A model generated the notes under the pieces. The model was not told where the DNA came from and did no database searches. It saw only the letters and a program-made list of their open reading frames with translations. The position numbers were made by a program, and so were the translations under genes. DNA of 64,000 nucleotides from an uncultured bacterium (GTDB lineage: Bacteria > Acidobacteriota > HRBIN11 > JAKEFK01), in NCBI GenBank assembly GCA_963843285.1, contig CAWJJO010000004.1:5521-69520 (forward strand), in the 5' to 3' direction. Each line of letters opens with the position of its first letter. Position 1 is the first letter of the stretch. Positions 11,285 through 39,044 of this stretch are shown here, one piece after another.

Positions 11285-11698
11285 AACGTGAAGATCCTCT
11301 GGTTTTGTAGGTTCTGCTGCACGATCATGGATGGCCACGAAGCGTAGCGGTGTGTTTTGTCGGACGCGCAGAATCCTGTCCTCGGCACGTTATTTAGAAT
11401 CGGTCGGAGAGGAGCAATTTTAGAAGGTTGCGGCAACTGGGTTCAGATCATGGCCCGAGGACGATGTTAACCCACGGGGAATCCTTCAATTGGTCCAATC
11501 TCTACCCCTGTTCCTAAGCTATATTCTTCTTTCTTCGTATGCACGGAAAAATCGAAGATTGTGGGGCTACTCTGTACTTCGATCACTGCGGGTTTTGCGG
11601 AAAGTGCACCGAGAAGTTAGGACAGGCTTAAAAGGTGTAGCGAATCGAATCGGAAAATAGCGTGGCACGCCTGGCCAATCAGCGAGAAACGCGTCCGT

Positions 11699-11958
11699 TT
11701 AAGATCGGATCCAGAGTTTTTCGTATACGACACTGGGAAGAAAGAAGCGCATTTCCAATCCTTCTACTTCGGCGCGCGCGAACAAATAACGTTGCTCATG
11801 AAAGAGAGGAAGCGCCAACGCCTTGTTCCTGAGGATCTCTTCGATTTCGCGATAAATGGCCTGGCGGACTTTGCGGTCCTGTTCTGCGCGACGTCGTTCA
11901 ATCAGCCGGTCCAATTCAGGCAAGCTGCAAAAAGCAGCGGCAAAAACGTTCCTTTCTC
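11699..11958 (-). pseudogene. 3'-terminal fragment (74 codons) of a paralog of the giant kinase gene 18619..25050
   Basis: ~230 nt near-identical to 18619..18850, followed by ~25 nt matching 20195..20220. Encodes ...[34 protein letters not shown]. Confidence 0.6.
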
Positions 11959-18618: not shown

Positions 18619-21600
18619 TTAAGATCGGATCCAGAGTTTTTCGTAAACGACACTGGGAAGGGAGAAGCGCATTTCCAATCCTTCTACTTCCGCACGCGCG
18701 AACAAATAACGCTGCTCATGAAAAAGAGGAAGCGCCAACGCCTTGTTCCTGAGGATCTCTTCGATTTCGCGATAAATGGCCTGGCGGACTTTGCGGTCCT
18801 GTTCTGCGCGACCTCGTTCAATCAGCCGGTCCAATTCAGGCGAGCTGCAAAAAGCATCCAACATTCCGTCACCTGTCTCAAAGATCTCTGCAAAAGTAGA
18901 AGGATCCGGATAATCAGCATGCCACCGCACAAGAGCCAAATCCGCATTTCCTGTTTTGAGAAAGTCGGCAGACGCTTTATTCTCCAGTACTTTGATCCGA
19001 ATTCCTTTTTCGTTCAGCATGGCGATCAAATCTTGCAGCAGAGCCGAATACGTACTTTCGTAAATGGGATGGATCATGCAGGTCAGTTCCAGATCCCCTT
19101 TTCCTTTCACACTGGAGGGTAATCCTGTCCTGCGTGTAGGCTCATATCCAAGTAAGCCCGGCGGGGTCAAGCTGTAAGCCGCGATTCCCAAACGGCCTAC
19201 ACTCTGACGCACCAACCGGGTTACGTCCACCGATTCCAGAATTTGCCGTCGCAAAGCTGGATCGGTCATCGCTCCGGAATGAGAGTTCATCACCAGAAAA
19301 TAGGTGGAAAGAGTAGGCATTTCCGCGTAATGAGCGGCAAGAGTCGGATCACGGCGTAAGGTTGCAACATCTGATGGAAGCAAGTCAGTAGCCACTGAAA
19401 AGTCTCCGCTGCGGAACCCGCTCAAGATTTCTTGTGGCGGCACGCCAAAAGTGAATCTGAGCCCATCACTTTTGGGCAGTCCGGTACGCCAATAATCAGG
19501 ATTCGCTTCCAGTTCCAGCAGTTTTTCCGGCTCATACCGGATGAGGCGGAAAGGTCCCGTCCCGATACACCCATCTCGCCAGCTTCCCGAAAACAGAGTG
19601 CTCCCTTCCGGTATGACGGAGCAACAGGGATGGGTCAACATTGCCGGCAACAGCGAAAGAGGGCGGGTGAGGTCGATTACGAATTCCGTGGCGGAAATGA
19701 TCTTGAATCCAGGAAGGTCGTTGGATTCACCTTTGATCATCGAAGTGGCTCCACGAATTGCAGACAAATATCCGCGACGCGGAGATCCGCTTTTGCGCAG
19801 GAGTTGTTCAAAGGAGTAACGAACGTCGCGCGAAGTCAGGCGCCGTCCATCTTGAAAACGTACGTTTTCGCGCAACTTGAAGTGGAATCTTTTTCCTCCT
19901 TCCCCGGAAGAAAACTCAGATGCGAGCCACGGAATGATTCCCCCTTGCTTTTCGACGGTCAACGTTTCGAAAATCATGGGAGTCACTTCCCCCTCTACGA
20001 TCAGAAAATTCATCGAAGGGTCTATACTTTGTGGTCGCGTGGTTTGAGGGACTCGCACAAGCCCTCCTTCCCGTTTTTTGCCCGGAACCAAACCTTCTTC
20101 TTCGATTCTTCCGATTTCCGCGTACCGGACAAATGGCGCGCTGCTTTGAATCGCGAGTCCTCTGAGGTTGTGAGCCGCCACACGGTAATCGATTTCATAA
20201 AAGAGCGGCAAAAACGTTCCTTTCTCCATCAGCAGCTCTTCCATCTGTCGATACAACTTTTCTCTTTTCTCAGGGCGACTTTCCACGCGCGCCTGTTCCA
20301 TGAGCTCATCGATTTGATCGCTGGAGAAATATTTCCGAAAATTGCCGGCCTTGGAATAAAAAAGAGGATAAATGAAATTGTCCGGATCATCATAATCGGC
20401 GATCCAACGCGTGAGCAACACATCGATATTTTCATTGTTGTCCCAGGCCTCGCGATACGAGCTCATATCCGGCGTCACGATCGAAGTTTCAACACCCAGC
20501 TCTTCCCAGGTTTTCAACAACGCTCTGATCAAAGCGCCGTAGCGGTCCTGGAGAATCGGATGGACGGCAGCTCTTAACCGGATCGGTAAGGATAGACCGG
20601 TTGTTTGCAATCGTTCGCGAGCCTGATCGATGGAAATGCTGATATGTCTTCGGCCCGGATCGTGACCGAGCAGTCCGGGTGGCAGCAAACCCTCAGCAGG
20701 CTGCGCAAAGCGCCCCAGTGTGCGCCACACCAGATCATGCGTTTGAAGCACTCCGCATAATGCTTCGCGCAATGCAGCTACTTTTCCAAAGGGTCCGGAT
20801 GAGTTGAACACAAGAAAACAGGTGCTCTTTTTCGGAACTTCTACAAATCCAGCTTGAATCAACGGATCGCGAAGGATTTCATCCAGATTTTCCGGCAACA
20901 GATCGCGGACAACATCGAATTCACCTTTCTTGAAACCTTCCGCCATCTTCTTTGTGCTGATGGAAGTTCGAAACTCGACAGTATCCAGGAAAGGCGCGCG
21001 TCCTTTCCAGTAATGTTCGTTTTTCTGCAAAATGATTTTACCGGGTTCCACCGAATCGATCCGGAATGGACCTGTGCCCACCAGGTTTCCATGGGTGTCA
21101 TCGCAGGTGATCGCTGCCCGCGCATCCGTTAGCAGCGAGGGATAAATCAACAGCGGCTCCTCCAGTTGCACGGAGAACGAAGTGTCCGACTGCACCTGGA
21201 TTCCGGTGACCTCATTTTGGGAACCAGCGAGGAATTCCCGGACTCCCACGATGGAACCGAATGCTGCCGCCATATTTTCCCCGCTGACGCGGATCGCTTT
21301 TTCAAATGAGGATTTCACATCTTTCGCAGTGAGCGTGCGGCCATCGTGAAGAGATAATCCCTGTCTGAGAGTAAACACAAATAGTTTTCCATCTTCACGA
21401 GCTTCCCAGTTGTCGCACAAAAACGGGACCGGATGCCCGCGTTCATCTGTGCTCACCAGAGTTTCAAAGATCGTGGCATGAACTTCTGCTTCTTCCACAA
21501 GCGAAATGTTGGCAGGATGCAACGCGGAAATGGGAGCAGGAAGAGCCACAACAATCTTGCCCCCCTGCGCAATTTTTCCTTCTTTCTTCGGCTGCGGCGC

Positions 21601-24600
21601 GAGGACTTCCAATTCATGCAAATACTGCTTCGCCTTTTCGTACTCGCCCCGTAGATTTGCAACCGTGCTTCCGAGCGAAAGCAATCTGTGCAGACCGCCG
21701 GTTTCACCGCTGGACTTCGCAACCTGGATTCCTTTGTCCACCCATTTCCCGGTTTCCTCGAATTTCCTGCTCTCCCAGGAAGTTTCTGAGAGTTGAACGA
21801 GCGCATTCGCGAGATGCGCTTGATGTTTCTCCGTTTCAAACAGGGAAACCGCCTGTTCTAATTCCCGTAATGAATCCTCCAGATTTCCGGCCATCCGGTA
21901 TGCCTCTGCCAGAAGCATTCTGGCTTCCCCCTCTCTGGAACGATCCATCCCTTCTTCTTCATCGCCGAAGAAATCGAGAACGGTTTTTGTTGTGCGTATG
22001 GCATCTTCCGTGCTGAAAGCATGGAGAGATTTTCGCGCAAATTTTAAACCGTAGTCGATCACTTTTTCAGGAACGTCGGCATTCGAATAGTGATGAATCA
22101 ATTCCGGGTACACCCGCTCCAGCCGCCCCTGGTTCCGGCGCTCCAGCTCTTCAGCGTATTTGCGATGAAGGGACCGGCGTTTGCGGCGTGAAAGCTCCGC
22201 GTAGAGCACATCGCGAATCACGCCGCTGGAAAACATCAGACGGTCGCCGCGCGACTCCCGTTCTTCTTGCAACAAACCGTCACGGAGTAACTGATCGAGC
22301 GCATCTTCTACGTCCTTGCCTTCGGCAAGCAGCTCCAGATCCCTGAAATCAAAACTTTTCCCGATCACCGATGCGAGGGAAAGGACATCCTTCCGGTCCT
22401 GAGGCAGCCGCTTGATCCGTTTTTCGATCACTTGCTGGATTGTTTCCGGCAAAGCTCCTGAAGAAAAAGCGGCATCACTCGAAATGGTCCAGGCTCCCGT
22501 GTCATCCTTCGCGACCCCGCCCGAATCGATCAACGATCGAACAAGTTCCTGCGTAAAGTATGGATTTCCCTCCGTCGCTTCAAACAATCGTTCGGCGAAC
22601 CGGTCATCCAGAGTGGTTCCTGTCAGGATGGTTTCGAGAAACAGTCGATGTTCGGCAGTGGAAAAAGGTTGCAGATGCATCAGTAAAAATCGCCTGTCGC
22701 TGCGAAAGCTATCCAGAAGCTGGTGCAGCAGATGCCTCTTATCCACTTCGCCGCTGCGATACGTTCCTACCACCAGAGTCGGCGTTGTGCTGAGCCGGCG
22801 CACCAGATATTCCAACGCATCAATCGAAATGTCTACGTTATGCAGATCTTCAAAGAAAATGACCAGCGGCTTTGCGCCTCCGATCCGGATAAAAGAACGG
22901 GCGAGCAGATCAAAGATATAAGTGCGGTCTTCAATCTTTTTTGTTTCTGCTCCGGGCGTAATCTTTCGATCCGAAGTTAACTCGATCTCTGCGAGAACGG
23001 GAAACAGAGAGACGAGATCAGAAGCAAGGTCGGAGAAATCCACCGGACCGGAAGAAGAGGTTGCCTTTAAGTGAAAATATTCCTGGATGACTTCACAAAA
23101 CCCCTGATAGGGGAAGGCCCGGTCCTGTTCTGCGAAACGACCGTGAAGAACACGGATGTGGCGCGCGCGCGCGAGCCGTTCCAGCTCATCCAGCAATCTG
23201 CTCTTGCCGATTCCTGCTTCACCGCCGACCACCACAAACTGGCATTCACCGGCTGCTGCCAGGTTCAACCGGTTTTGTAAATCGGTGAATTCTTTTTCTC
23301 GATCCACAAAAGGAGATTGCACGGCCTTTTGAATATGACTGGACAACCTGCCGATCATGGACAGCTTTTGCGCGCGTTCGCTGTCGCGCAGCTTCGAACG
23401 AAGCTTCATCAAAGATTCCGTTAATTCCCGCGCGCGCTGCGGACGTTTGGTCCGGTCCTTTTCCAGACAGCTCATCACAATGCGTTCCAGCTCCTCCGGC
23501 ACATCGGCGCCAAGCAAACGAGGAGCCGACGGAATTTCGTGAGCGATGCGGTACAGGACCGACTGAATTTCTCCTGCGAAAGGCGCTTCTCCCACCAGAC
23601 ACTCATACAGCACCGTTCCCAGAGAATAAATATCGGAACGTCCATCCAGGTCTCCCTGCGATAATTGCTCAGGACTGAGATAGGCGACGGTGCCCACTAA
23701 CATCCCTGTTTTGGTGAGATGGCTTTGAGTCGAGGACATGGCAAGACCGAAGTCGGTCACACGCACACGCGCTCCACCCGTAGCCGTTTCTCCCACCGAT
23801 ACGAGAATATTTTCCGGCTTGATGTCGCGATGTACGACCCCTTTCGTGTGGCTGTATTCGAGAGCATCCGATACCTGAATACCGATGTCGATGACATCTC
23901 CTAAACTCAGAGAGCGGTCGCGCAGCAAAGCTCGAAGACTCGATCCCGGAACGTACGGCATGACAAAGAACAGAGCTCCGGCGTGTTCGCCGATATCGTA
24001 TACGTTCACGATTGCCGGATGATCCATCTTCGCAACCACGCGCGCCTCTCGCTTGAAGCGTTCCACCGCGTCGGTGGAAAGAGCATCCGGAGTGATCACT
24101 TTGACAGCCACTTCGCGATCCAGCATCGGATCCCGGGCGAGGTAAACCACACCCATTCCGCCACGGCCCAGCTCGCGAATAATCTGATACCGGTTGGCAA
24201 AGCGAAGCGCCCTCAGCGCATTGGCCAGCTCCATAGCGGAGGAGTAGCGCTGGTTCCTGTCCTTGACCATGGCGCGGCGAAGGATCGGATCCAGTCCCTG
24301 CGGCATCAGAGCGGAAACGGAGCTCGGAAGCGGAGGATCGGTTGTGGCAATTTCATGCAAGATCGAAAGAACACTGGGACCGCTGAAAGGAACTTTTCCG
24401 GTGGCTGCTTCATAGAGAACGGCTCCCAAGGAGAAAATATCGGTGCGGAAATCGAGCGGTTCGCCTCGCGTTTGCTCCGGGGACATGTACGCCACGGTTC
24501 CTACAATCATTCCTGTTTTCGTGAGTTTACTGACGGTTTGCTCACCGCTTACCTTTTCATCCTCAACCTGGACCACCTTCGCAAGGCCGAAATCGAGTAT

Positions 24601-25050
24601 TTTGGCCTGCCCGTTGGGTGTTACTAATATGTTCGAAGGTTTGATGTCCCGGTGGATCAGACCCGCTGAATGCGCCGCTGCAAGACCATCTGCAATCTGC
24701 GATCCAAGATCCAGAAGCTGCGACAATTCCAGGGGACCTCGCTGCAACAAGGATCTTAACGTTTCCCCTTCCACATATTCCATGACGATGAAATCCGCGC
24801 CATCAACCTCTTCGATGTTATAGATCGTAACGATGTTCGGATGATTCAGAGCGGATGCAGACCGCGCTTCCTGCAACAGACGCCGCTTCGCTGTGGCATC
24901 CTGTGAAGCGGAGGAGGGCAAGAACTTGACCGCCACCTGGCGTCCAAGCTTGAGGTCCTGGGCTTTAAAGACTTCACCCATTCCCCCCTGCCCGATTTTT
25001 TCAAGAATGCGGTAATGAAGTATTTTCTGTTCGGGACCGGATGAATTCAC
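18619..25050 (-). CDS. giant multidomain signalling protein: two tandem Ser/Thr kinase domains, AAA/STAND NTPase, TPR, two SBP_bac_5 (OppA/DppA-like) solute-binding domains
   Basis: 2143 aa. Kinase 1: [31 protein letters not shown]. Kinase 2: [27 protein letters not shown]. Walker [13 protein letters not shown]. Two C-terminal modules with the family-5 SBP pattern (GTGPFR...KNEHYW). No TM segment evident. Confidence 0.85.
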
Positions 25051-25115
25051 GATGACTCCGTGGAACTTCGGGCTAAATCAGCAAAAGTAAAAGTATACCA
25101 GAGTGGGTGTAACAA
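23451..25115. repeat. segmental duplication copy A (~1.67 kb, near-identical to 32406..34078)
   Basis: Identity starts at CCGGTCCTTTTCCAGACAGCTCATCACAATGCG and ends inside the G-rich repeat arm after GTGTAACAAGGGGGA. Confidence 0.85.
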
Positions 25116-25167
25116 GGGGGATGGGGGGGATGGAGGAGATAAGGGGATGGGGTTTTATTTATTGAAT

Positions 25168-26493
25168 CAGTGCTGTCCGGTTAAATGTCGAATAGTTGCA
25201 ATTGTTTACAGTTTAGATCCTGTTGAATCGTATAGTTTGGTTGTGAAAGTGCTTGGAAAATGGGCATTTTTTCGAAAAGGCTGAGACTCAAAATCTGTAG
25301 AATTGTGTAAAGGCTTTGATCCAGTTGGAGTTGTTTCTTTATCACCGACACCAGAACATAAACCGAGATGGAAATCCAAATTTGAGTCTTCACAGCGTTT
25401 GGTGAGGTTCCATAAAATGCTTTGATTCGCAAATGCTGTTTGATCCATTTGAAGAAAAGTTCGATCTGCCAACGGCATTTGTACAGCTGGCCGATGACCA
25501 CGGCAGGCAGATGGAAATTGTTGGTTAAGAATGTAAATCGCTTGTTTGTTTCGGTATCGTAGTATCGAATGCGGCGTAGTTTGTCGGGGTAATCTAGTTT
25601 GGTTTTGATGCCATTTAGCAAGATAGTTTGATCGCATCGAAGTCCTGTGGATCGCTCCACAGGATAGGAGTATAGACGATGGTAGTCGAAGTTGCTTTTG
25701 GCTCTCGTGATGAAGAAGGCCATGGTTTGATCGATCTTGTAGAGTCGAGCAAAATCGACGTAACCGCGATCCATGATGTAGATGGCAGCGGGCTCGAATG
25801 TCAGTTGGTCCAGGATGTTGATATCGTGCACTTTTCCTGTCGTGACAATAACCGTCGTCGGAAGATTGCCGCGCAAATCCAGCAGCGTGTGAAGTTTTAT
25901 CGCGCCTTTGTGCTTGCGAAACCTCGCCCACGGAAACAACTCCAGACAAAGATCGATTGTAGTGGAGTCCAAAGCGTAGACTGTCTGATCCAAATCCAAA
26001 GCGAAAGGCCCGTCTGCGTACAGTTGTCGAGCAATGCCAATGAGCACCTGCGCAAAATCGGCGTAAATCTGCCAAGATCGCTTCTCGTTGGCATCGGCCA
26101 GTGTGCTGCGGGAGATCTTGCCGCGAATGCCAGCATGATAAAGTTTGGATTCCATTACCCGCAGACACGTCTCGATATCCCGCAGACTCTCGCGATATGT
26201 AAGTTGCGCAAAGGCCATGCAAAGAAACTGATCCAAACAAGAGAAACTCCGCGTACGATGATTCCCTTGATAGCGTTCGACACATTGATTGAATTCCAAG
26301 CGGGAAGCGAGTCCATCAATTGAGAGAAAACCGTTCGTCCTTCGTTCATAGACCACCTCTTTCCGTAACAAAGCGCGGAAAGTATGGCAGAAAGGATCAA
26401 CTAATTTGAAATCGAAAACGACTATTTTGTACTCTAAGATATTCATTTAGTATAAGTTATGGGCAACTTCAAAATTTTAACCGGACAGCACTG
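25168..26493 (-). mobile_element. IS4-family insertion sequence, 1326 bp, intact
   Basis: 18-bp perfect terminal inverted repeats CAGTGCTGTCCGGTTAAA. 9-bp direct target duplication TTATTGAAT (25159-25167 and 26494-26502). Single DDE transposase ORF. Confidence 0.85.
25181..26446 (-). CDS. IS4-family DDE transposase
   Basis: 421 aa filling the IS between its IRs; sequence is IS4-like. Confidence 0.8.
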   Translation of the reverse strand: MNILEYKIVVFDFKLVDPFCHTFRALLRKEVVYERRTNGFLSIDGLASRLEFNQCVERYQGNHRTRSFSCLDQFLCMAFAQLTYRESLRDIETCLRVMESKLYHAGIRGKISRSTLADANEKRSWQIYADFAQVLIGIARQLYADGPFALDLDQTVYALDSTTIDLCLELFPWARFRKHKGAIKLHTLLDLRGNLPTTVIVTTGKVHDINILDQLTFEPAAIYIMDRGYVDFARLYKIDQTMAFFITRAKSNFDYHRLYSYPVERSTGLRCDQTILLNGIKTKLDYPDKLRRIRYYDTETNKRFTFLTNNFHLPAVVIGQLYKCRWQIELFFKWIKQHLRIKAFYGTSPNAVKTQIWISISVYVLVSVIKKQLQLDQSLYTILQILSLSLFEKMPIFQALSQPNYTIQQDLNCKQLQLFDI

Positions 26494-26608
26494 TTATTGA
26501 ATAATAAATTATCCCCACATCTCCATCATCCCCTGATCTCCTTTCTTACACTTCTTTCAATCGGGAACTGGAATTACACTGGCTCGCCGGGCACCGAAAC
26601 GGTATCGG

Positions 26609-27754
26609 CTAAAGCCAACCGCCACTAAATCCCGCCCGCCGCAGTCCGGTGACGACTGCCGGGCAACGGCGCATGATGTTCCAGAGCAGGCCGGTCCGGT
26701 AGTTCTCGATCATCAGCACGACCGGTCCTTGATCGATGCCGAAGTGATACGGCGTGACCCACCAACCGGTCGGGCTATCCGGCACGGCAAACGATTGATT
26801 GAACGACGGCTTGAACCCATATTTCCCCGTCATTCCCAGGTCCATTCGCGCAAAGTGCCGCACGGTCGGGATGACGATTTCAGGAGCAAACGGCAGCGAG
26901 GCGACGACGACCCACGGGGCGACAGTGCCGTCGTCTGGACCGAATGGGGCGCCGCGAGCGATATAGTCGAAGAACTCGCGTTCGACGCCGTTGACCACCC
27001 GCTTCGCCCAACCGGGTCCGTCGCATGCCGTGAATCCCCAACAGTGTTCGCCGTAGCCGACGAAATTCATGGGATTGCGGATCGCGTATTCCTGCTGCAC
27101 AAACGTCGCCTGCCGGCTGTTCTCGAAGTAGTCGCTGCCGTGCGTCCGCATGAATTCGTCGCGAATGCCGCGAAAGTCGATCCACATATGCGAGAGCTGA
27201 TGCGTGAAGAGCGGCCCCGAGTAAAGCAATTCACGATCGTAGATGTTCTTCCACTGGTAGGTCGCGCAATAGGCGCGATAACTCTCGGGCGGCAACGGAT
27301 GCGTTGGCGAGCCGAGTCCGAGGATGTAGAGCAGCAAGCCTTCGTCGTAACCTTGCCAGCGGTGTGGGATGAACCCGTTCTCCGGCCGCCAGCCATGCGT
27401 GAGCGTCGGTCCGCCATCACAGGCCCAATTCCAGTCGGCCCGACGGTAAAGCGCATCGGCCAAGCTTCTGATCTCGACCTCGTCGGGCGTGTCGCGGTCG
27501 AAATAGGTGGCGACCGTCAAGGCACCCGCGAACAGAAATGCCGAGTCGATGGTGGAAAGCTCGCACTGCCAGACGCGGCGACCCGTTTCGATGTCCAGGA
27601 AATGGTAGAAGAAGCCTTTGTAACCGGAGGCGTCCGGCTCGGGACCCTGCGGGCATTCGAGCAGGTATCGCAGTCGTTTCCGGGTGATCTTGGCGGCGAA
27701 ATCTCGGAAGAGGACGCCGCGCTCGACGACGACCGGAATCGTCGCCAGCGCCAT
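26609..27754 (-). CDS. hypothetical Trp/Tyr-rich protein in high-GC block, possibly glycoside-hydrolase-associated (DUF3131/glucoamylase-like?)
   Basis: 381-aa intact ORF immediately downstream of the GH94 pseudogene. Family call weak. Confidence 0.4.
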   Translation of the reverse strand: MALATIPVVVERGVLFRDFAAKITRKRLRYLLECPQGPEPDASGYKGFFYHFLDIETGRRVWQCELSTIDSAFLFAGALTVATYFDRDTPDEVEIRSLADALYRRADWNWACDGGPTLTHGWRPENGFIPHRWQGYDEGLLLYILGLGSPTHPLPPESYRAYCATYQWKNIYDRELLYSGPLFTHQLSHMWIDFRGIRDEFMRTHGSDYFENSRQATFVQQEYAIRNPMNFVGYGEHCWGFTACDGPGWAKRVVNGVEREFFDYIARGAPFGPDDGTVAPWVVVASLPFAPEIVIPTVRHFARMDLGMTGKYGFKPSFNQSFAVPDSPTGWWVTPYHFGIDQGPVVLMIENYRTGLLWNIMRRCPAVVTGLRRAGFSGGWL

Positions 27755-27930
27755 GCCGACGGCGGCGATGCTGACCGGAGCGTTCGGGTCGGTCTTGTCG
27801 CGGACCAGCCCATTGTCCGGATTGGTTTCGTGCAGATAGTACAGAACCGTGGAGAACTGCAGCAGACCCAGATCTTGTCGGTGAGCAGTCGATCAAGATC
27901 GTTGTCGGCACCGGGAGTGTCGGCCATGAG

Positions 27931-30900
27931 TCAGTTGCTCTCGGTCAGCCCAATTGCACGCGGACGTTGTGAGTCTTCCCGTCGTCGCTGAGCGGCACTG
28001 CGTCGTTCGGCAATCGTTGCCCGTCCAAGCTCGACCGATCGGACGCCGCGACCCGTGCCAGCCGAGTTGTCCACCAGAATCCGGTATGTCGCGGACCGAT
28101 GGCGATAGGTCAGTTCAAATCCCGGCCAGCTCGGCGGGATGCATGGCTCGAAACGAAGAGTGCCGCCCCGCAATTGGAAGCCCAGAATCGTTTCAATCGC
28201 GACGCGGTAGAGCCAACTCGCCGAGCCGGTGTACCACGTCCAGCCGCCGCGGCCCGTGTGCGGCGGGGCGCCATACACGTCGGCGCACACCACATACGGC
28301 TCAACTTTGTAATGCTGCACCTCCTCAGCCGTCGTGGCATGGTAGACCGGGTTGATGAGGTTCCAAAGTTCCATGGCGCGGTCGCCGCGACCCTGCAACG
28401 CCGTCGCCAGGGCAACCCAAGTGGCGGCGTGGGTGTATTGACCGCCGTTCTCGCGGATGCCCGGCACATATCCTTTGATGTAGCCGGGCTGAAGGGTGCC
28501 TTTGTCGAACGGCGGGTCGAACAGTTGGATCAGTTTGTCGCCGATACGCACCAGTCGTTTTTGAACCGCGTCCATTGCCGATTGAGCCCGCTGCCGGGTT
28601 TGCTACCCCGGAAATGACCGCCCACGCTTGTGGGATGGCGTCGATCTGGCACTCATCGTTTTGAGCTGATCCCAGGGGAGTGCCGTCGTCGAAATATGCC
28701 CGGCGGTACCACGCGCCGTCCCAGGCGTTCGCCTCCAGAGCAACCCGCAACTGCTCGGCTCGCTCCCGGCACCAATTGGCATCGTCGGCCTGGCTGCGCC
28801 GCTCAGCCAATTCTGCAAACGCGTTCAACACGCTGACGAAGAACCACCCGTTCCAAACGCTCTCGCCCTTTCCGTGGGCGCCCACCTTATTCATGCCGTC
28901 GTTCCAATCGCCAGTGCCCATGAGGGGCAATCCGTGGGGACCCAGTCGATAGCCGTGCTTCAGCGCGCGAACGCAGTGCTCGTAAACGGTGCCAGTCTGC
29001 TCACTCACTGCGGGCAAGTTGAAGTCTTCCTCCTGGTCTTCGCGAAGTACCGGCGACGTGATGAACGGCACGACTTCATCTAACAAGCTCCGTGTCGCCT
29101 GTTGTCACAACATAGTGGTGAACGACGAGCGGCAGGAAATAGAGGTCGTCGGTGATCCGCGTGCGAACGCCGATCCCGGACGGCGGGTGCCACCAGTGCT
29201 GGACATCGCCCTCCTCGAATTGCCGTGCCGCCGATCGCAAGATCTGCGCCCGCGCCTCTGCCGGAGCGCTGTAGACCAGGGCCATCACATCCTGCAGTTG
29301 GTCTCGAAAGCCGTACGCTCCGCCGGATTGGTAAAACGCGGAGCGAGCCCAAACGCGGCAAGCCAGGACCTGATAAACAAGCCAACGGTTGAGCATCAGG
29401 TCGATGCCCGGATCGGGCGTAGTCACGTGCAACGCGTTCAGGTAGCGGTCCCATTGCTGTTGCACCTGCGTCAGTGCCGCATCGGCTCGATCGGATTGTG
29501 TGTATTCGTCAATGAGTCGATGAACCTCCTCCAAACTGTCCGCCTGACCCAAGGCAAAAACCACTTCTCTCGTCTCACCAGGAGCCAGCGTCAGTTCCGT
29601 CGTCATTGCCGCGCAGGGATCGAGGGCATGGGCCGGCGCGGCCGGACAGCCCGACGCGCCTCAGAGCGGCGGGCATTGAAATCGAGCCGTGTTCCCCGAG
29701 AAATTCCGTACGATCGGCGGTGACCGACTGCGTCGGCGAACCACAGGCCGCGAAGGCGATCTTCTCGGCGAAGTTCGCCGGCCCAGGCATTCCGCGCCAA
29801 TATCGCGCTCGCTCTCCGGATCGCGCTCACAGACGACTTGCAGCGGAGCGTTTTCACGGACGGTTCCAAGAACCCATTCGGCGTAGTACGTCGCCGACAA
29901 GCGCCGGGGCCGATCGCCGTCATTTCGCACCGTCAGGCACACCAACTTAATCGGATCGTCGGTCGGGACGAAAACCAAAAGGTCCTGATTGAGATTGCGG
30001 CTGACATGCGTGTAGCGAGTGTAGCCCTGGCCGTGGCGGACGGTCACCGTTGCCGCTAGGTCCCAGCGGCAAGGGCGTGGGTGTCCAGAAGTCACCGGTT
30101 TCCTCGTCGCGCAAATAGATCACTTCGCTTGGCGGGTCCGAAGTCGGATCATTCGACCAGGGAGTGAGGCGGTTCATTTGACTATTGCCCGCCCAACTGT
30201 AGCCCAGACCAGCCTCTGTCACTAAACATCCGAACTGCGGATTGGCCAGCACATTCGTCCAGGGGGCCGGCGGCAACGCTGGTCCCGACTGTGACGTGCC
30301 GTCGATGACGATCACGTACTCGCGGCCATCACGGGTGAAACCTCCGAAGCCGTTCCAGAAACTCAATCCTTCAGGCGGTCGGGCGGGCTGCGCGACAGGC
30401 TTTGTCGCCGATCGCAGCCGGAGTGAGTTGCGGCGGCGGATCGGGCGGTGGGGCAGCGCGATGATCGATCTGCTCGGTCAGCGAGCCCGCGACCACCGCC
30501 GAGTACAGCCCGCGCGGCGGCCGCGAGCAGGACCGCATCATCGGCCGGCACCTTGTCCGCGGTCAAAAAGAACACACCGCCTGGCTTGCCGAGCATCTCG
30601 CCGGCAACTCCCGTCTGTAGTTCCTTTCGTAACCGATCGGCAGGTTCGCCGGCGCGCTCGTCCAGAATCACGAGATCCAATTTCAATCCCCGACGGCGTG
30701 TATAGGTGCGCCACTGAACAAGTTGGCGAACGACCGTCTCATCGTCGTCCTGAGCGACTCGGACCAGCACAATTGGCAGGTCACCGGAAATGGAGTGCGG
30801 CCACAGGCTCGCCTGCCCCAGCCGGTTGGCAGCCACGGCATCAAGGTCGCGAAGACCGGAGTTCGTGAAAATGACGGCCGCCGCCAATCGGTTGAACAGG

Positions 30901-31800
30901 GCGATTTCGTCCGGTGTGAGCTCCAAGCTCTCGTAGTTCGCTCTGGCAGCGGGCTTTGGCGCCTGCAAATGCCTGGTCGATCGCTTCGAATTCGCGGAAT
31001 CGTTCGGCTATTCCGATGGCGGCTTCACGCGTGTCAGCCGCTCCGGTCACAAATGCGATCCGAGTCGTCATTCCCGGCTTCGAGCTCGACGCGCCGGCGC
31101 AAGCTGAAGATCGGATCGAGCACCGGGCCGGTGGTCCGCGATAAGCGAGACCCCGAGTCCAAGGCGGCGGGATTGGCCGGCGTGCGACCGCGTCCGAGAA
31201 ATCTCATTCGATCCGTCTCGTATTCAATCTCTTCAGTGGCCGAAACGCTCGCTGCCGAAGTGTGAATCGCCCAGACTGGATGCTCGTTCGCGCCGCGGGG
31301 TCGGCGTCGGGCCAAAAGTGCGCCGCACCGGGGATCGAATTCCGTCTCCAGGAATAGCTTTGCGAAAGCAGGGTGGGCCTGATCGGCCCGACGGTCATTC
31401 AGACACACCTCCGCATAGCTCGTCAGCTCGAGTTCGCGGTGGCGAAGGCCGTGATTGACTAGCGTCACCGCACGTACCTCAGCATCTGCATCCGGCACGA
31501 CACAAACGGCACAGCGGGTCTCGATGTCGCCATCCCGTCGACGAAACTCCGCCCGGTCGGTATGAAACTCGAATTCAGATTCATCAGCGGTCTGGCGGCA
31601 GCGGTTGGCTGCCAATCGACCACAGACTGTCGTCGCTGAGGTCACGAATGTAATAGAACTGGCCCCAACAGTCGCGCGTGGCATCTTCGCGCCAGCGGGT
31701 TACATCCAGGTCGCGCCAGCTGCTGTAGCCTGCGCCGGCGCTCGTGATCATCACGCTGTACGAGCCGTTGGATAGCAGCGCTACCTGCAGGTTGCGATTT
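27931..31800 (-). pseudogene. GH94-family glycoside phosphorylase / cyclic beta-1,2-glucan synthase-like gene, 5'-truncated and broken by >=6 frameshifts
   Basis: GH94 hallmarks spread over different frames: SYSVMITSAGAGYSSWRDLDVTRWREDATRD (~31.75 kb), LELTSYAEV, DLVILDE, GAYGFRDQLQD, HWWHP, GDWNDGMN, RFEPCIPPSWPGF. Locally very high GC. Confidence 0.6.
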
Positions 31801-31978
31801 CATTTCTCGTCCTTTCGACATCAGAATCCTGTTGATACTACTTACTATTGACAAAAGTATGAACTGAGTGGCAAGCAAGCAAGCCCATAGGCGTCTTGCC
31901 GAATTACGAGGACCTGCGATGGCTTCAAATAAGGTGGGAAGATAGGGTTGCAACGCGGAGAACGCGGAGAGCACTGAG

Positions 31979-32022
31979 GTGTAAGAATGGAGATGGGGAG
32001 ATGAGGGTGGATGGGTACGCGC
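31979..32022 (+). repeat. G-rich palindromic-repeat family, single degenerate arm
   Basis: GTGTAAGAATGGAGATGGGGAGATGAGGGTGGATGGG, preceded by tandem AACGCGGAG AACGCGGAG. Confidence 0.7.
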
Positions 32023-32024
32023 TA

Positions 32025-32330
32025 TTATTCGTCCCAGGCTGCGACGCACCAGATCTGGATTGGCGTAGTGCCCCACTGCAGCATACGGTTCCCTGGACTT
32101 CCGACAATAGGGCATTCAGTATCGCCTTCTTGATCGATCACTACGATCCCTTTTGGCTTTCCTGTGGCCGGGTCAACCGGCATGTGGTGTGAGAACGTCG
32201 GGGAGTGACCGAAGCTTTGAAGACTGCCGGCGCCCGTAAACTGCCGGTTCTTCAAGACGTCGAAGTCCGCATTCAGTACCCAGAATTGCAGCAGAGATCC
32301 GGGCTGAAGTGTCGTAATCATCAAATTCAC
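32025..32330 (-). CDS. 101-aa hypothetical ORF translationally coupled to tandem-kinase ORF
   Basis: Its ATG overlaps the kinase TGA (ATGA). No recognisable motif. Confidence 0.3.
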
Positions 32331-34003
32331 GATCCGATCTCTCCAGCCGCTTTTCGCTGGACCCTGTCAAACAGGCTGGTGAAAGCGACAATGCGTTCTT
32401 CGCTCCGGTCCTTTTCCAGACAGCTCATCACAATGCGTTCCAGCTCCTCCGGCACATCGGCGCCAAGCAAACGAGGAGCCGACGGAATTTCGTGAGCGAT
32501 GCGGTACAGGACCGACTGAATTTCTCCTGCGAAAGGCGCTTCTCCCACCAGACACTCATACAGCACCGTTCCCAGAGAATAAATATCGGAACGTCCATCC
32601 AGGTCTCCCTGCGATAATTGCTCCGGACTGAGATAGGCGACTGTGCCCACTAACATCCCTGTTTTGGTGAGATGGCTTTGAGTCGAGGACATGGCAAGAC
32701 CGAAGTCGGTCACACGCACACGCGCTCCACCCGTAGCCGTTTCTCCCACCGATACGAGAATATTTTCCGGCTTGATGTCGCGATGTACGACCCCTTTCGT
32801 GTGGCTGTATTCCAGAGCATCCGATACCTGAATACCGATGTCGATGACATCTCCCAAACTCAGAGAGCGGTCGCGCAGCAAAGCTCGAAGACTCGATCCC
32901 GGAACGTACGGCATGACAAAGAACAGAGCTCCGGCGTGTTCGCCGATATCGTATACGTTCACGATTGCCGGATGATCCATCTTCGCAACCACGCGCGCCT
33001 CTCGCTTGAAGCGTTCCACCGCGTCGGTGGAAAGAGCGTCCGGAGTGATCACTTTGACAGCCACTTCGCGATCCAGCATCGGATCCCGAGCGAGGTAAAC
33101 CACACCCATTCCGCCACGGCCCAGCTCGCGAATAATCTGATACCGGTTGGCAAAGCGTAGCGCCCTCAGCGCATTGGCCAGCTCCATAGCGGAGGAGTAG
33201 CGCTGATTCCTGTCCTTGACCATGGCGCGGCGAAGGATCGGATCCAGCCCCTGCGGCATCAGAGCGGAAACGGAGCTCGGAAGCGGAGGATCGGCTGTGG
33301 CAATTTCATGCAAGATCGAAAGAACACTGGGACCGCTGAAAGGAACTTTTCCGGTGGCTGCTTCATATAGAACGGCTCCCAAGGAGAAAATATCGGTGCG
33401 GAAATCGAGTGGTTCGCCGCGCGTTTGCTCCGGCGACATGTACGCCACGGTTCCTACAATCATTCCTGTTTTCGTGAGCTTACTGACGGTTTGCTCACCG
33501 CTTACCTTTTCATCCTCAACCTGGACCACCTTCGCCAGGCCGAAATCGAGTATTTTGGCCTGCCCGTTGGGTGTTACTAATATGTTCGAAGGTTTGATGT
33601 CCCGGTGGATCAGACCCGCGGAATGCGCTGCCGCAAGACCATCGGCAATCTGCGATCCAAGATCCAGAAGCTGCGATAATTCCAGGGGACCTCGCTGTAG
33701 CAAGGATCTTAACGTTTCCCCTTCCACATATTCCATGACGATGAAATCCGCGCCATCAACCTCTTCGATGTTATAGATCGTAACGATGTTCGGATGATTT
33801 AAAGCGGATGCAGACCGCGCTTCCTGCAACAGACGCCGCTTCGCTGTGGCATCCTGGGAAGCGGAAGAGGGCAAGAACTTGACGGCCACCTGGCGTCCAA
33901 GCTTGAGGTCCTGGGCTTTAAAGACTTCACCCATTCCCCCCTGCCCGATTTTTTCAAGAATGCGGTAATGAAGTATTTTCTGTTCGGGACCGGATGAATT
34001 CAC
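32327..34003 (-). CDS. stand-alone tandem Ser/Thr kinase (two kinase domains); truncated duplicate of the N-terminus of 18619..25050
   Basis: 558 aa. The first ~533 aa are near-identical to the giant protein (e.g. IATADPPLP vs IATTDPPLP), then a unique 25-aa tail [25 protein letters not shown]. Confidence 0.8.
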
Positions 34004-34078
34004 GATAACTCCGTGGAACTTCGGGCTAAATCAGCAAAAGTAAAAGTATACCAGAGTGGGTGTAACAAGGGGGATAGG
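32406..34078. repeat. segmental duplication copy B (near-identical to 23451..25115)
   Basis: See copy A. Confidence 0.85.
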
Positions 34079-34106
34079 GAGATAATGGGGATGTGGGGAT
34101 AGCGGA
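34069..34106 (+). repeat. G-rich palindromic-repeat family, single arm
   Basis: GTGTAACAAGGGGGATAGGGAGATAATGGGGATGTGGGGATAGCGG, immediately before the ATG at 34107. Confidence 0.8.
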
Positions 34107-35828
34107 ATGAAAAAGAAGAAGGGCCGGCGCACGTCGGAGAGGGATCCGCTGATCAAGGTTCTATCCACATTTCGGCGCACGGATACGACATCTTTTGAGG
34201 ATGCATGGGTGGGGATGGAACCGACTTTTCAATCGGCGAAGTCGGTGAAGAAGTGGCGCAAGATGTCTGAAGAAGTTGGAGGCGAGGATGCCTACTTCCT
34301 TGATCCATACATGCTCAATACACAGAAAGAGGTCGCCAAATCGATTGTCAAACGGTATCGACGCAAAAAGGAACAAGGAGATCGGGCCTGTTTCTTTCTG
34401 GATGTGAAGCGCGAAAAGGATCAGGATCCGTGGAAGGTACAGCGTCAAAATCTTCACTTCGTTTGGGATGCGCAAGGAATCGAGGACTTCGAGGTGCGGT
34501 TTACGCTCGATCCGGAAACTTTCGAATACAGCATCAAGCCTGTTCCTCTTCTCTGGTTCTATGATGAGAGGTTCGTTCGTTTCCTGGAAGAGTTCCTGTG
34601 GAAGGTGCCCCTGCAGCATGGTCTATCGCCGTCCATCGCGCACGGAGGCGCTCAGTTCTCTCTATCGGCAAAAACGTACCTGACCGGAAGTCTTCTGGCA
34701 GACGACATCGCGGATAAATTGAATCATCCTGAATTGACGAACTGGATCTTCGATTGGCCGAATCCGGATGATCGCTCCTTCCGTGCTACGGAACAGCGTT
34801 TCGCGGCGTTCCGGAATCTGCTTTCCGCTTACTGGTCCGGAGGATTTCACCCAAAAGTGAAAGGCCTTCTCACTGCATCGAACGCTTATTTTGATGACGG
34901 ATTCAGTCCGGTTCAGACAGATAAAAAGGGCCTCATGGATTGGAACAGTGGTCCGGTCGGCAATGACCAACAGATTTTTCAGACGAACTTTTGTTTTGGC
35001 CGCGCAATCAGACTTTTCGCGCAGAATGTGCATCCCGGATACTGGCAGGCGGTGGATCCCAAAGAAGATGGCTATCGCCCCGATCAAATCATGCGCTACA
35101 GTGAGGCCAACCTCAACCGTTTGCAAATCGCGGGCGAGTGGCACGTCAAGAGCGGCGAACCATTGGATGTCGAGCGTGCGCCGAAATTGGACGCAACCCT
35201 CGATTCCTCCATGCTCACAACGGAGGCGAGTTACGAGAACCGCGGCCAGATGGGGCGCACCAGCGCAAAGGACTTTGTGGAAGCGCTGCTCCTCTCAATC
35301 CATCGCGCACGCTACCTCAAAGCACATCCTTGCGTGCGCGTAAAAGGCTCTCTGCTTCAGGATCAACTCCTGATCCATGCGGAAGCCACAGTGAAAAAAT
35401 ATGCGGGCAGCGCTGCGCTGGACAGATTGAAAGTGAACGCGCGGAAATCAAATCTTGAGTATTCCAAAGGGCGGCTCAAAATGGATTGGATTGAGCCGGA
35501 GACGCTGTTCTGGAGCGCATGGCATGCGCTTCCACGCAAAGAGAAAGCCGCAATTGCGTCGGAAGTCATCGGTCGTTTCGTTTCCTATGTCGAAGAGTCT
35601 GCATCGATGGATCCGCGTCCCGCGAAGGATGATCCGATGGAATGGCATCGGCACCGGATTCATCCCGTCCTATGGAAGGCTCTTGAAGATGGAAAAAGCA
35701 TTTTTAAGCCGGATGACTCTGTGCAGCGCGAGCTCAGAGCGTTTCGCGCAAATCGCAAGAAATATCTGGATCGCAGACCTGTCTTTTCGCAAATCCGCTT
35801 GAGACGGCCCTGGGGTTCGGAAGTGTAG
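34107..35828 (+). CDS. hypothetical protein, 573 aa, no recognisable domain
   Basis: Long ORF with good coding character. Its stop TAG lies inside the repeat start GTGTAGAAG. Confidence 0.6.
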   Translation: MKKKKGRRTSERDPLIKVLSTFRRTDTTSFEDAWVGMEPTFQSAKSVKKWRKMSEEVGGEDAYFLDPYMLNTQKEVAKSIVKRYRRKKEQGDRACFFLDVKREKDQDPWKVQRQNLHFVWDAQGIEDFEVRFTLDPETFEYSIKPVPLLWFYDERFVRFLEEFLWKVPLQHGLSPSIAHGGAQFSLSAKTYLTGSLLADDIADKLNHPELTNWIFDWPNPDDRSFRATEQRFAAFRNLLSAYWSGGFHPKVKGLLTASNAYFDDGFSPVQTDKKGLMDWNSGPVGNDQQIFQTNFCFGRAIRLFAQNVHPGYWQAVDPKEDGYRPDQIMRYSEANLNRLQIAGEWHVKSGEPLDVERAPKLDATLDSSMLTTEASYENRGQMGRTSAKDFVEALLLSIHRARYLKAHPCVRVKGSLLQDQLLIHAEATVKKYAGSAALDRLKVNARKSNLEYSKGRLKMDWIEPETLFWSAWHALPRKEKAAIASEVIGRFVSYVEESASMDPRPAKDDPMEWHRHRIHPVLWKALEDGKSIFKPDDSVQRELRAFRANRKKYLDRRPVFSQIRLRRPWGSEV

Positions 35829-35870
35829 AAGGGGGATGTGGGGATGAGGGGATATTGGGATAGGTAAGGG
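35823..35870 (+). repeat. G-rich palindromic-repeat family, single arm (GTGTAGAAG variant supplies the TAG stop)
   Basis: GTGTAGAAGGGGGATGTGGGGATGAGGGGATATTGGGATAGGTAAGGGG. Confidence 0.8.
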
Positions 35871-35936
35871 GTTTGTCTTCGGGGCGAGAATCCATTATTC
35901 TTTTGTGTTTCACACTCCACTTCAAGAGGAAGAACT

Positions 35937-37958: not shown

Positions 37959-38005
37959 GTGTAAGAAGGGAGATGGGGAGATGAGGGTGATGTGGGGATA
38001 AGGAT
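37959..38005 (+). repeat. G-rich palindromic-repeat family, single arm, abutting the TGA stop of the M13 gene
   Basis: GTGTAAGAAGGGAGATGGGGAGATGAGGGTGATGTGGGGATAAGG. Confidence 0.85.
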
Positions 38006-38129
38006 TATTTTTTTGAGGCTTCGTAACGCCAGAAATCGCCTGGAAGAAGAATGTCAATATCTTCTTTCTTACACCTCATTGGAAGTCCCGCCATAAGGCG
38101 ATAGAATCAACGTAGAAGGAGGTGTTCGA

Positions 38130-38510
38130 ATGCCGCTGACTGTACGCGTGGAAGAAAAGGGTCGAGGAATGTATATGGTTTACTCTGAAGGAACCATCGA
38201 TGCGAATACGCATACCATTTTGCGATCCGAAATGGACGCAATTTTGAAGAAGTCCCCCAGGATGATCATCATGGACATGAAAGATGTAAAGTACATTAGC
38301 AGCGCGGGGATTGCCGTAGTCCTGACTACAGAAAAGTCGATGAAAGATCATGGTGGCGATCTATTGATGGTTCATCTTCCCCCTCAAATTAAGAAAGTTT
38401 TTGATATCGTTCAGGCTCTTCCCTCTCAACAAATCTTCGCCAGCGTTGAGGAGCTGGACAGGTATCTGATTGAGATGCAACGAAAAGTAAAAGACGGAGA
38501 GATTGAGTAA
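38130..38510 (+). CDS. STAS-domain anti-sigma-factor antagonist (SpoIIAA/RsbV-like)
   Basis: 126 aa; DMKDVKYISSAGIAVVL STAS core. Confidence 0.75.
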   Translation: MPLTVRVEEKGRGMYMVYSEGTIDANTHTILRSEMDAILKKSPRMIIMDMKDVKYISSAGIAVVLTTEKSMKDHGGDLLMVHLPPQIKKVFDIVQALPSQQIFASVEELDRYLIEMQRKVKDGEIE

Positions 38511-38525
38511 CCATACCGGGATGAA

Positions 38526-38951: not shown

Positions 38952-38960
38952 CCATTTCAT

Positions 38961-39012: not shown

Positions 39013-39044
39013 GCGATGACCTTCTGGCGCAATAAAATGCCAGT

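Follow-up and report, generated by a model that had tools for sequence, protein, structure and literature searches.

The 558-codon open reading frame (ORF) studied here in a 64,000-nt stretch of DNA (the window) is best read, with a probability of about 0.5, as the 5' stump of a second copy of a giant STAND-type kinase gene, either a paralog or an imported allele, and not as a purpose-built gene. The original prediction of a stand-alone tandem-kinase gene was right in that a real, 98%-identical copy with an intact ORF is present; this ORF, however, has the appearance of the front part of a second copy or allele that was broken. Fusion of the broken copy to scraps of an unrelated gene, called X in the following, most likely reflects the ordinary wear of a genome in a region rich in repeats and prone to rearrangement. 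For the positions of all features, see Table 1.

When the window was compared with itself by BLAST, copies A and B were connected by a single ungapped match of 1,676 bp (98.21% identity, 30 mismatches, E = 0). The near-identity of 32406-34078 to 23451-25115 that had been proposed holds, with coordinates off by about 2-11 bp (copy A ends at 25126, not at 25115), and so does the proposed content, the giant gene's 5' end together with upstream region, which amounts to the first 533 codons and 76 bp upstream. The two copies are told apart by 30 fixed differences and have unlike flanks on all four sides; the proteins derived from them differ solely by T237A over the 533 shared residues. The segmental duplication within one genome is genuine and its copies are non-identical. 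A simple tandem duplication was ruled out, as the sequence following copy A (25127-32403) has no homology in self-BLAST to that following copy B (34080-41356). The spacer between the copies measures 7.3 kb and contains an IS4 element and a foreign cassette. The duplication had also been called recent, but its age is not readable from 98% identity: the dS is 0.07, and the near-lack of non-synonymous change has three competing explanations.

Table 1 Features of the window, with positions counted from its first letter
Feature	Positions	Strand	Description
X fragment, middle	11592..11695	-	X residues about 267-305 with internal frameshift; profile 275-303, E 9e-4; starts right past the stop codon of the 3' stump
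Giant-gene 3' stump	11697..11936	-	Last 78 codons, stop and 2 nt; 96.25% identical to 18617-18856
Giant gene, intact	18619..25050	-	2,143 aa, 6.4 kb; Pkinase x2, AAA_16 (STAND-type NTPase), TPR, SBP_bac_5 x2
Repeat copy A	23451..25126	-	5' end of intact giant gene; self-BLAST, mismatch list
REP-like element R6 (G arm)	25102..25150	+	Upstream of copy A; first ~16 nt as in R8, other subtype beyond; distal part resembles the copy at 43346
IS4-family insertion sequence	25168..26493	-	1,326 bp; perfect 18-bp terminal inverted repeats (CAGTGCTGTCCGGTTAAA); 9-bp target duplication TTATTGAAT (25159-25167, 26494-26502)
C-rich inverted partner arm of R6	26510..26545	+	REPIN-like pair with R6, spacer split by the IS
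GH94 + glucoamylase two-gene cassette	26605..31816	-	5.2 kb; 62% GC vs about 51% background; 82-84% nucleotide identity to Candidatus Udaeobacter-type loci (Verrucomicrobiota)
REP-like element R7	31975..32013	+	Between X fragment and acquired cassette
101-aa ORF	32025..32330	-	Within the direct X fragment; 4-nt overlap (GTGA) with stump stop
X fragment, direct, 3'-terminal	32028..32339	-	X profile 576-672 of 672, DRIV...WDE-stop, E about 1e-31 to 1e-34; last ~97 codons
Stump ORF	32327..34003	-	558 aa: 533 shared residues (two kinase domains) + 25-aa tail
X fragment, inverted	32336..32401	+	66 nt; X profile 553-575; antisense gives most of the 25-aa tail
Repeat copy B	32404..34079	-	76 bp upstream including first ~16 nt of REP + giant-gene codons 1-533; self-BLAST, mismatch list
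REP-like element R8	34055..34103	+	Upstream of copy B; repeat boundary inside R8

A collapsed repeat, the artefact suspected earlier, would lower the number of copies and not raise it; the artefact to consider here is a false join, and the non-homologous junctions speak against one. In such a case two strain alleles of one gene would have been laid out as two loci with a chimeric spacer. This is highly improbable, although the 2-4% synonymous-type divergence is at the level seen in co-occurring strains, the single-base insertions and deletion of the cassette (see below) look like locally poor consensus, and no independent contig of the same species was found among the matches listed. False joins arise within shared repeats without a visible junction, whereas the junctions kinase/inverted X/X and REP + 25 nt/3' stump are non-homologous and structured. 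Moreover, the sequences flanking each copy are unique on either side, the host REP family flanks the foreign cassette, the target duplication of the IS is intact, and all other long ORFs are unbroken, including the 6.4-kb giant gene. Altogether, a repeat-driven assembly artefact is unlikely.

The stump starts with GTG like its parent and has a GGAG ribosome-binding site, 76 bp of upstream sequence in common with copy A, and no stop or frameshift. Both of its kinase domains are of the Hanks type (Ser/Thr), Pfam Pkinase being matched twice (E 1e-102), and the Gly-loop, VAIK Lys, HRD, DFG and APE/SPE motifs are readable in both. Kinase 2 is broken within subdomain XI, at codon 533/534 (CLEKDR/SEERIV), a position where CLEKDPxxRPQ is kept in all orthologs. 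The claim that both kinase domains are retained was therefore only partly borne out: two Pkinase domains are present, but kinase 2 has lost the subdomain XI Arg (KRP) and helix alpha-I, and antisense sequence of X stands in their place. In an AF2 model of the stump, pLDDT was above 90 for both kinase cores and 52-68 for the tail. A scan for the sigma-70 consensus upstream of the stump gave no match, a consensus that does not cover Acidobacteriota promoters. Because start codon, Shine-Dalgarno sequence, the 76 bp upstream and both catalytic cores are kept, the stump is probably still transcribed, and its predicted product could be a tandem kinase that lacks a sensor and ends in a junk tail.

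The tail of 25 aa, described before as unique, is present, but its sequence is read-through into the antisense of the inverted X piece. This piece scored 7.8 bits (E 4e-5), a score reached by none of 1,500 shuffles (maximum 5.4), and several X homologs match the same spot. A tail formed by in-frame fusion to X, in the kinase frame, was also considered; the alignment made by eye gave no added profile score, and the antisense/inversion reading is supported instead. Likewise, the 4-nt overlap of the 101-aa ORF with the stump had been recognized correctly, but the ORF is the C-terminus of X and not a small gene. Its alignments are confined to the C-terminus of proteins about 660-720 aa long, which rules out a real coupled small gene. 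Judged from the sequence, the stump gene is an accidental fusion with debris and not a tidy new operon. An 11-mer, GAACGCATTGT, occurs both in the kinase and in the inverted X piece at a distance of 42 nt; it lies off the junction and may be chance. Microhomology at the junction by way of this 11-mer was rejected since it is not located at the junction itself.

A second stump, the 3' end of the giant gene, differs from the intact gene by six synonymous and three non-synonymous changes. The intact giant gene thus lies between two stranded pieces of that gene in the same orientation, and each stump adjoins X debris. The presence of the 3' stump beside X debris indicates that the once-duplicated segment exceeded the giant-gene 5' end. 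Debris of the two operon partners of X was not found in the window. The order of the X fragments, with a C-terminal piece upstream of a middle piece, is not producible by one simple event and speaks against the broken-copy reading; it points to a history of several steps.

The REP-like family has at least 17 copies in the 64 kb, some of them as inverted pairs. Copies A and B are identical through ATACCAGAGTGGGTGTAACAAGGGGGAT, including a private C absent from all other copies of the element, and continue in two different REP subtypes thereafter; the boundary REP is a chimera of both. As proposed, the boundary lies inside a G-rich repeat, the right boundary following the first ~16 nt of the REP-like element. 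The left breakpoint is not in a REP, codon 533/534 of the kinase being joined to inverted X. Repeat-mediated recombination, suggested by the original prediction, is plausible as far as one boundary in a multi-copy REP is concerned, but the other boundary is illegitimate, so that a simple REP x REP tandem duplication does not describe the event. REP-mediated chromosomal duplications and rearrangements have been reported (Shyamala, Schneider and Ames 1990, as cited in PMC11708052), REP clusters are recombination hot spots (PMC11708052) and inverted REP pairs are known as REPINs (PMC3116915). Like in REP-mediated rearrangements, one end of the present repeat falls inside a multi-copy extragenic repeat, and the chimeric boundary REP is as expected for REP x REP exchange. 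Unlike in REP-mediated duplications, a REP is found at one boundary only, an illegitimate join accompanied by an inversion of 66 nt forms the other, and no simple tandem duplication is present. No RAYT transposase was seen in the window.

If the stump is the remnant of a broken second copy, dispersed REP copies would have recombined and thereby duplicated or translocated a segment with the giant gene. Illegitimate events of the template-switch type would then have deleted the central part of one copy, with a short inverted piece remaining at the breakpoint. In events independent of these, the IS4 element would have jumped into the REP pair that precedes the intact copy, and the Verrucomicrobia-like glycoside-hydrolase cassette would have come to lie in the spacer.

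The transposase of the IS contains DDE_Tnp_1 and DUF4372 domains (NF033592, 276 bits vs a cut-off of 115). A junction made by the IS was ruled out by its perfect inverted repeats and its intact 9-bp target duplication in the spacer of the REP pair. Since this target duplication is intact, the IS is a later simple insertion and not the maker of the junction. Sequence 26500-26552, which holds the C-rich arm, matches an intact REP pair at 49915-49966 in self-BLAST. Insertion of IS elements into REP elements has been described (Tobes and Pareja 2006, PMC1525189), and the present case resembles it in that the spacer of an inverted REP pair is occupied by an IS4-family element whose 9-bp target duplication is clean. 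As a cause of rearrangement the two differ, because the IS is here a bystander and the duplication boundary is not its work.

By composition and nucleotide identity, the GH94/glucoamylase cassette is horizontally acquired. It carries 13 single-base insertions (in GH94) and one deletion without accompanying substitution decay. GH94 was discarded as a slowly decayed pseudogene for dating the spacer; minus the 13 single-base insertions, it shows normal constraint and no stops. Host-type REPs flank the cassette within 60-160 nt on both sides. This bears on the idea that the 7.3-kb spacer integrated at the 5' region of the giant gene and created the 1,676-bp direct repeat in the same event, the 2% divergence being that of a donor strain. 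Such an event could have proceeded on sister chromosomes, by one REP-REP homologous exchange and one illegitimate join; alternatively, a circle with the 1.7-kb segment on it could have integrated in the Campbell manner. The layout is exactly segment-spacer-segment, the spacer is compositionally foreign (62% GC, 84% nucleotide identity to Udaeobacter), one junction is in a REP and the other illegitimate, and synonymous-only divergence fits two alleles diverged in different strains. The flanking host-type REPs suggest, however, that the cassette was already resident. The spacer is also devoid of an integrase or other circle-forming function, save the IS with its own intact target duplication, and the 3' stump at 11.7 kb and the X debris at both stumps are left unexplained. 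We consider an integration of this kind improbable.

Evidence against a broken copy comes from the divergence of the 5' copies, with 27 synonymous changes and one non-synonymous change (omega 0.012 over 1,599 nt; dS 0.07). For a stump neutral since duplication at this dS, about 40 non-synonymous changes would be expected vs the one seen. The low omega and the lack of a stop or frameshift are exactly the pattern of a selected functional gene. The near-lack of non-synonymous change means that the stump was either recently truncated or is still under selection. When the 3' stump was analyzed, an omega of 0.14 (6:3) and a dS of 0.12 were obtained; compared to a relic neutral since duplication, its synonymous excess has a P of about 0.05, a binomial estimate from 9 differences only and thus weak evidence. 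As this surely dead stump shows a similar synonymous bias, recent truncation is favoured. Its dS and that of the 5' stump are statistically compatible, as expected for two ends of one former copy. Most likely, the 27:1 excess would go back to pre-truncation divergence of two full-length selected alleles, or else the intact copy would have undergone allelic replacement at a later time; either would account for the bias of both stumps. Selection acting on the stump over a long time is less likely as the cause.

We regard it as a tentative possibility, weaker than the broken copy, that a partial 5'-end duplication produced a new functional gene, a stand-alone tandem kinase without sensor and NTPase that has been kept by purifying selection since, with its junk tail tolerated. 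The product could act together with the parent kinase, as a partner that is constitutive or dominant-modulating. The substitution pattern argues against neutrality of the copy since duplication (P about 1e-16), but the non-functional 3' stump is similarly biased, so the bias needs no selection on the 5' stump. ORF, start codon and ribosome-binding site are intact and the 76 bp upstream identical; both catalytic cores are complete and confidently folded in the model, in which the tail forms a helix at the place of alpha-I, yet in sequence an unrelated gene's antisense replaces subdomain XI Arg and alpha-I of kinase 2. A 1.7-kb direct repeat of 98% identity is recombinogenic, and the fact that it has persisted suggests that either the copy or the spacer is selected for. 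The X debris at both stumps is unexplained by a duplication of the 5' end alone. Finally, no stand-alone ortholog of the stump was found among the matches listed from 5.8 billion proteins. The close homologs among the matches listed (70-76%) are all giant-gene heads or partial calls and include no complete stand-alone tandem kinase of about 560 aa, a 546-aa match being annotated as partial. Among the matches listed, nothing exceeded 63% in contigs or 76% in proteins, and no sister genome with the pre-rearrangement state was found.

The parent gene has the layout of STAND (PknK-like) kinases, a kinase followed by an AAA_16/NOD NTPase and a TPR sensor arm; the stump is without NTPase and TPR. 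AAA_16 is matched at 581-761 with 69.6 bits vs a cut-off of 32.6, and the TPR_MalT/TPR_12 matches are weak. PknK of Mycobacterium tuberculosis has been named as a STAND kinase (PMC4381067), and like this type of Ser/Thr kinase the parent combines an N-terminal Hanks-type kinase with an AAA_16 NTPase and TPR/MalT-like repeats. It differs by two tandem kinase domains and two C-terminal SBP_bac_5 solute-binding domains, and the stump by its lack of the regulatory parts. The same K1-K2-AAA-TPR-SBP5x2 gene occurs in two relatives (L081 and L082), where no stand-alone kinase copy was found within +/-10 kb of the giant gene. As they carry the gene without such a copy within 10 kb, the giant gene represents the parental, ancestral architecture. 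Synteny was rejected as a guide to the native locus, since these loci have only the giant gene in common with the window. Two distant orthologs (L001 and L002) have the second kinase domain only.

Membership of the giant gene in a defence family was rejected, the PADLOC and NCBIfam matches being generic kinase-domain matches. For the anti-phage kinase systems PD-T4-6, MADS Mad6 and Mokosh MkoA, PADLOC matches span generic kinase domains only and no adjacent partner genes were found. It is a tentative possibility that the stump is a young functional, sensor-less tandem Ser/Thr kinase derived from a broken paralog, with a C-terminus recruited from the antisense of an inverted scrap, kept by selection (omega 0.012) and perhaps acting as decoy or modulator of its STAND-kinase parent beside a defence island.

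Plant tandem kinase proteins, e.g. immune receptors of the WTK/Yr15 type, usually pair a kinase with a pseudokinase. The stump is similar to them in having two kinase domains in one polypeptide and little else. In contrast, both of its domains keep all catalytic motifs, and nothing indicates common descent or an immune function. It also resembles bacterial gene remnants or truncated paralogs that arise by duplication and subsequent deletion: the intact copy is accompanied by 5' and 3' stumps that are fused to scraps of another gene, and the tail of the ORF is a fortuitous read-through. Unlike usual gene remnants, the 5' stump is pristine, with one amino-acid change in 533 and no frameshift, and its upstream region is kept; it may still be expressed.

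If the ORF is only a stump, its main value is to show, in a clean and well-resolved form, how genes are shuffled, broken and fused in the REP-rich regions of Acidobacteriota, and to warn that function is not proven by an omega near zero between paralogous fragments. Were it expressed and under selection, it would represent a rare case of bacterial gene birth by truncation and a natural experiment on a STAND kinase head freed from its NTPase and sensor domains.

Comparison of the window with itself returned one outstanding match, a gap-free pair of 1,676 bp (23451-25126 and 32404-34079; 98.21% identity, 30 mismatches). This bears out, with slightly corrected coordinates, the original prediction that the 5' end of the giant gene and its upstream G-rich repeat occur twice in near-identical form, and the predicted ORF layout matches the ORF map. 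The duplication is real and one of its boundaries lies in a REP-like element. According to Pfam, the giant protein carries two Pkinase domains, AAA_16, a weak TPR/MalT-TPR match and two SBP_bac_5 domains; the 558-aa protein has two Pkinase domains only, each with all Hanks motifs.

Coordinates and content of the features discussed
Feature	Position	Strand	Content
Giant ORF	18619..25050	-	2,143 aa
Stump ORF	32327..34003	-	558 aa: residues 1-533 common to the giant protein, then 25 unrelated
101-aa ORF	32025..32330	-	GTG start overlapping the stop of the stump ORF (GTGA)
IS4-family element	25168-26493		DUF4372 and DDE_Tnp_1; perfect 18-bp inverted repeats; 9-bp target duplication
REP sites, examples	11977, 13381, 15841, 16644, 18535, 35832, 37969, 43346, 44712, 49870/49925, 57492/57574		
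Acquired cassette	26605-31816		GH94 and glucoamylase genes
GH94 gene	27950-31806	-	interrupted by insertions
Defence island	601-9604	+	DrmD-like SNF2 helicase, AbiU/AIPR-like protein, type III methyltransferase, type III restriction enzyme
Gene-poor stretch	9606-11590		~2 kb, short overlapping ORFs only

Homology of the second copy stops within codon 533/534 of kinase 2. Where all orthologs read CLEKDPxxRPQ, this copy reads CLEKDR followed by SEERIV, so the subdomain-XI arginine and helix αI are lost. Both kinase domains are kept, as had been proposed, in terms of Pfam and Hanks motifs, but kinase 2 is incomplete at its end. In the AF2 model both kinase cores have pLDDT above 90 up to ~residue 530, and the 25-aa tail forms a low-confidence helix (pLDDT 52-68). 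The 101-aa ORF gave 58 matches among 1.84 billion representative proteins and aligned nearly always to the very C-terminal end of proteins ~660-720 aa long, here called X. A profile built from 29 full-length X members (672 positions) matched the minus strand at 32366-32028 with positions 569-672 (E ~1e-31), and positions 553-575, expected just ahead of this part of X, matched the opposite, plus strand at 32336-32401 (7.8 bits, E 4e-5). None of 1,500 six-frame shuffles reached 7.8 bits (maximum 5.4), and several individual X homologs also matched this spot. On the minus strand, the junction runs from kinase codon 533 through GC and 66 nt of inverted X into direct X 576-672, ending at X's natural stop. 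The tail taken to be unique results from reading on into the antisense strand of X. The 101-aa ORF does overlap the preceding stop, as its description as a coupled ORF implied, but homologs and profile identify it as the stranded C-terminus of X.

On the minus strand the 11-mer GAACGCATTGT occurs in the kinase at 32430-32440 (codons E-R-I-V) and again, 42 nt downstream, at 32388-32398 in the inverted X piece, there as X codons D-N-A-F in reverse complement. It may have acted as microhomology in a template switch, or be due to chance. Elsewhere, on Actinomycetota-type contigs, X closes a conserved three-gene operon without Pfam match. The operon genes overlap and encode ~1,450, ~1,020 and ~665 aa (L168 2626-11992; L170 2521-12013), and hosts include Acidimicrobiia, Micromonospora and metagenome contigs. 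No trace of X's two operon partners was found in the window.

A second remnant of the giant gene lies at 11697-11936, which matches 18617-18856 at 96.25% in the self-comparison and comprises the final 78 codons, the stop and 2 nt. Directly after this 3' stump, in the same direction, follow X residues ~267-305, frameshifted (profile E 9e-4; single-protein E 8e-6 to 3e-5). Because both stumps adjoin X debris, we argue that they descend from a shared arrangement of giant gene and X; a second full-length giant-gene copy would have lost its middle 4.6 kb, leaving both stumps. The minus-strand order begins with the upstream region and codons 1-533, X(553-672) with its first part inverted, a REP and a foreign cassette. 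It continues with REP, IS and REP, the intact giant gene and a REP, and ends with 6.5 kb of ordinary genes (P450, M24 peptidase, H-NOX and others), a REP, codons 2066-2143 and X(267-305). No single simple event yielding this order could be derived, and several duplication-plus-deletion or insertion histories would fit. The gene-poor stretch between the restriction enzyme and the X/giant-gene debris has no convincing gene and is probably further degraded sequence; the defence island sits immediately left of this debris zone (9.6-12 kb).

The G-rich repeat belongs to a family (consensus GTGTAAGAAGGGGGATGTGGAGAT..GGGGAT) that is represented at least 17 times in the window; nearly all copies are intergenic, and three form inverted G/C pairs. 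The element is ~45 bp long and REP/REPIN-like, with the same strand used almost throughout; the window showed no RAYT-type transposase. Both copies of the duplication are identical through ATACCAGAGTGGGTGTAACAAGGGGGAT, including a C absent from every other REP copy, and then diverge into different subtypes, the giant-gene copy resembling the REP at 43346 and the second copy that at 13381. The right (upstream) boundary therefore falls inside the REP, as originally proposed, and the REPs there look recombinant to judge from their subtypes. Repeat-mediated recombination is supported at this boundary, but the left one is a join to inverted X. Exchange through REPs is an established mechanism (Shyamala et al. 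1990, as cited in PMC11708052), and clusters of REPs act as hot spots (PMC11708052). The event belongs to a known kind.

The copies are separated by 7,277 bp. The IS4-family element in this spacer was inserted exactly in the AT-rich stretch that separates the two arms, G and C, of an inverted REP pair (a comparable intact pair lies at 49870-49955); REP elements are a known kind of IS target (PMC1525189). Its insertion is a simple later transposition and did not make the junction. The cassette has 62% GC against a background of ~51%, is closely flanked by host REPs on both sides, and shows 82-84% DNA identity to the pair of genes for GH94 (1,280 aa) and glucoamylase (439 aa) on Candidatus Udaeobacter-type contigs (Verrucomicrobiota); its glucoamylase is 85-92% identical to Udaeobacter, Rhizobium and soil-metagenome proteins. 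The cassette was acquired horizontally. The two genes are a unit of recent and wide transfer, now within an acidobacterial genome, and the glucoamylase has a 1-nt deletion at ~codon 17.

The original prediction had raised a collapsed repeat as a possible artefact; collapse removes copies, and what has to be considered is a false join. Such a join falls in shared sequence and shows no junction, whereas the junctions in the window connect non-homologous sequences and have structure, including an inverted 66-nt piece. In addition, each copy has unique flanks, the foreign cassette lies between host REPs, and the IS has kept its target duplication. A warning sign comes from GH94, in which 13 insertions of one base and one of 3 nt, most of them outside homopolymers, are accompanied by no deletion. 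All shift the frame with the same sign (chance of 13 alike ~2e-4 by our arithmetic). With the inserted bases removed, omega is 0.16 (0.18 between intact homologs), the 1,280 codons contain no stop and the window branch shows no surplus of change, as under normal constraint. The insertions look like a locally inaccurate consensus, or else an unusual inactivation of very recent date.

Between the two kinase copies, 27 of 28 coding differences are synonymous, and the sole amino-acid change, T237A, is at a site variable among orthologs (dS 0.071, dN 0.0008, omega 0.012). A copy neutral since duplication would at that depth show ~40 non-synonymous changes (P ~1e-16). We estimate from these counts that the stump was free of constraint for no more than ~6% of the divergence (Poisson upper limit, 4.7 changes in 1,200 sites). 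This fits selection acting on the stump. It also fits divergence between two full-length copies or strain alleles, both under selection, until one of them recently lost its interior. In a further reading the stumps are recent, and homologous recombination later exchanged the intact copy for an allele with 2-4% divergence. The 3' stump, which is unable to function, has 6 synonymous and 3 non-synonymous differences (omega 0.14), where neutrality since duplication predicts ~2/3 non-synonymous (our binomial P ~0.05). This synonymous bias in a non-functional piece weakly favours the latter two readings. We read the supposed stand-alone gene, with a probability of about one half, as the 5' remnant of a second, broken copy, well preserved and joined to debris; a new gene under selection, the main rival, seems rather unlikely.

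Among the matches listed, relatives on long contigs share 70-76% protein identity across the entire tandem-kinase head. The same K1-K2-AAA_16-TPR-SBP5x2 gene is present at loci L081 and L082 (split there by gene callers); neither locus has another tandem-kinase copy within 10 kb, and the gene order around them is not shared with the window. Distant orthologs (L001, L002; 52% identity over residues 284-2139) begin at kinase 2, which marks the first kinase domain as a lineage-specific addition. None of the close homologs listed is a complete stand-alone form of ~560 aa; the giant architecture is the ancestral state, the short ORF a derived one. Across these four loci the kinase head is 73-76% identical, compared with ~45-60% for the AAA/TPR/SBP body.

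The parent is a PknK-like STAND kinase (PMC4381067), but adds one kinase domain and two solute-binding-protein domains that presumably form the sensor; the protein has no evident export signal. Identity as a kinase-type defence protein was rejected, the PADLOC matches being generic domain matches. If made, the stump product is predicted to be a kinase head without NTPase switch or sensor. Judging from its domain content, it could plausibly be unstable, with kinase 2 lacking its last helix; constitutive activity, or rivalry with the parent for substrates or partners, would also be plausible.
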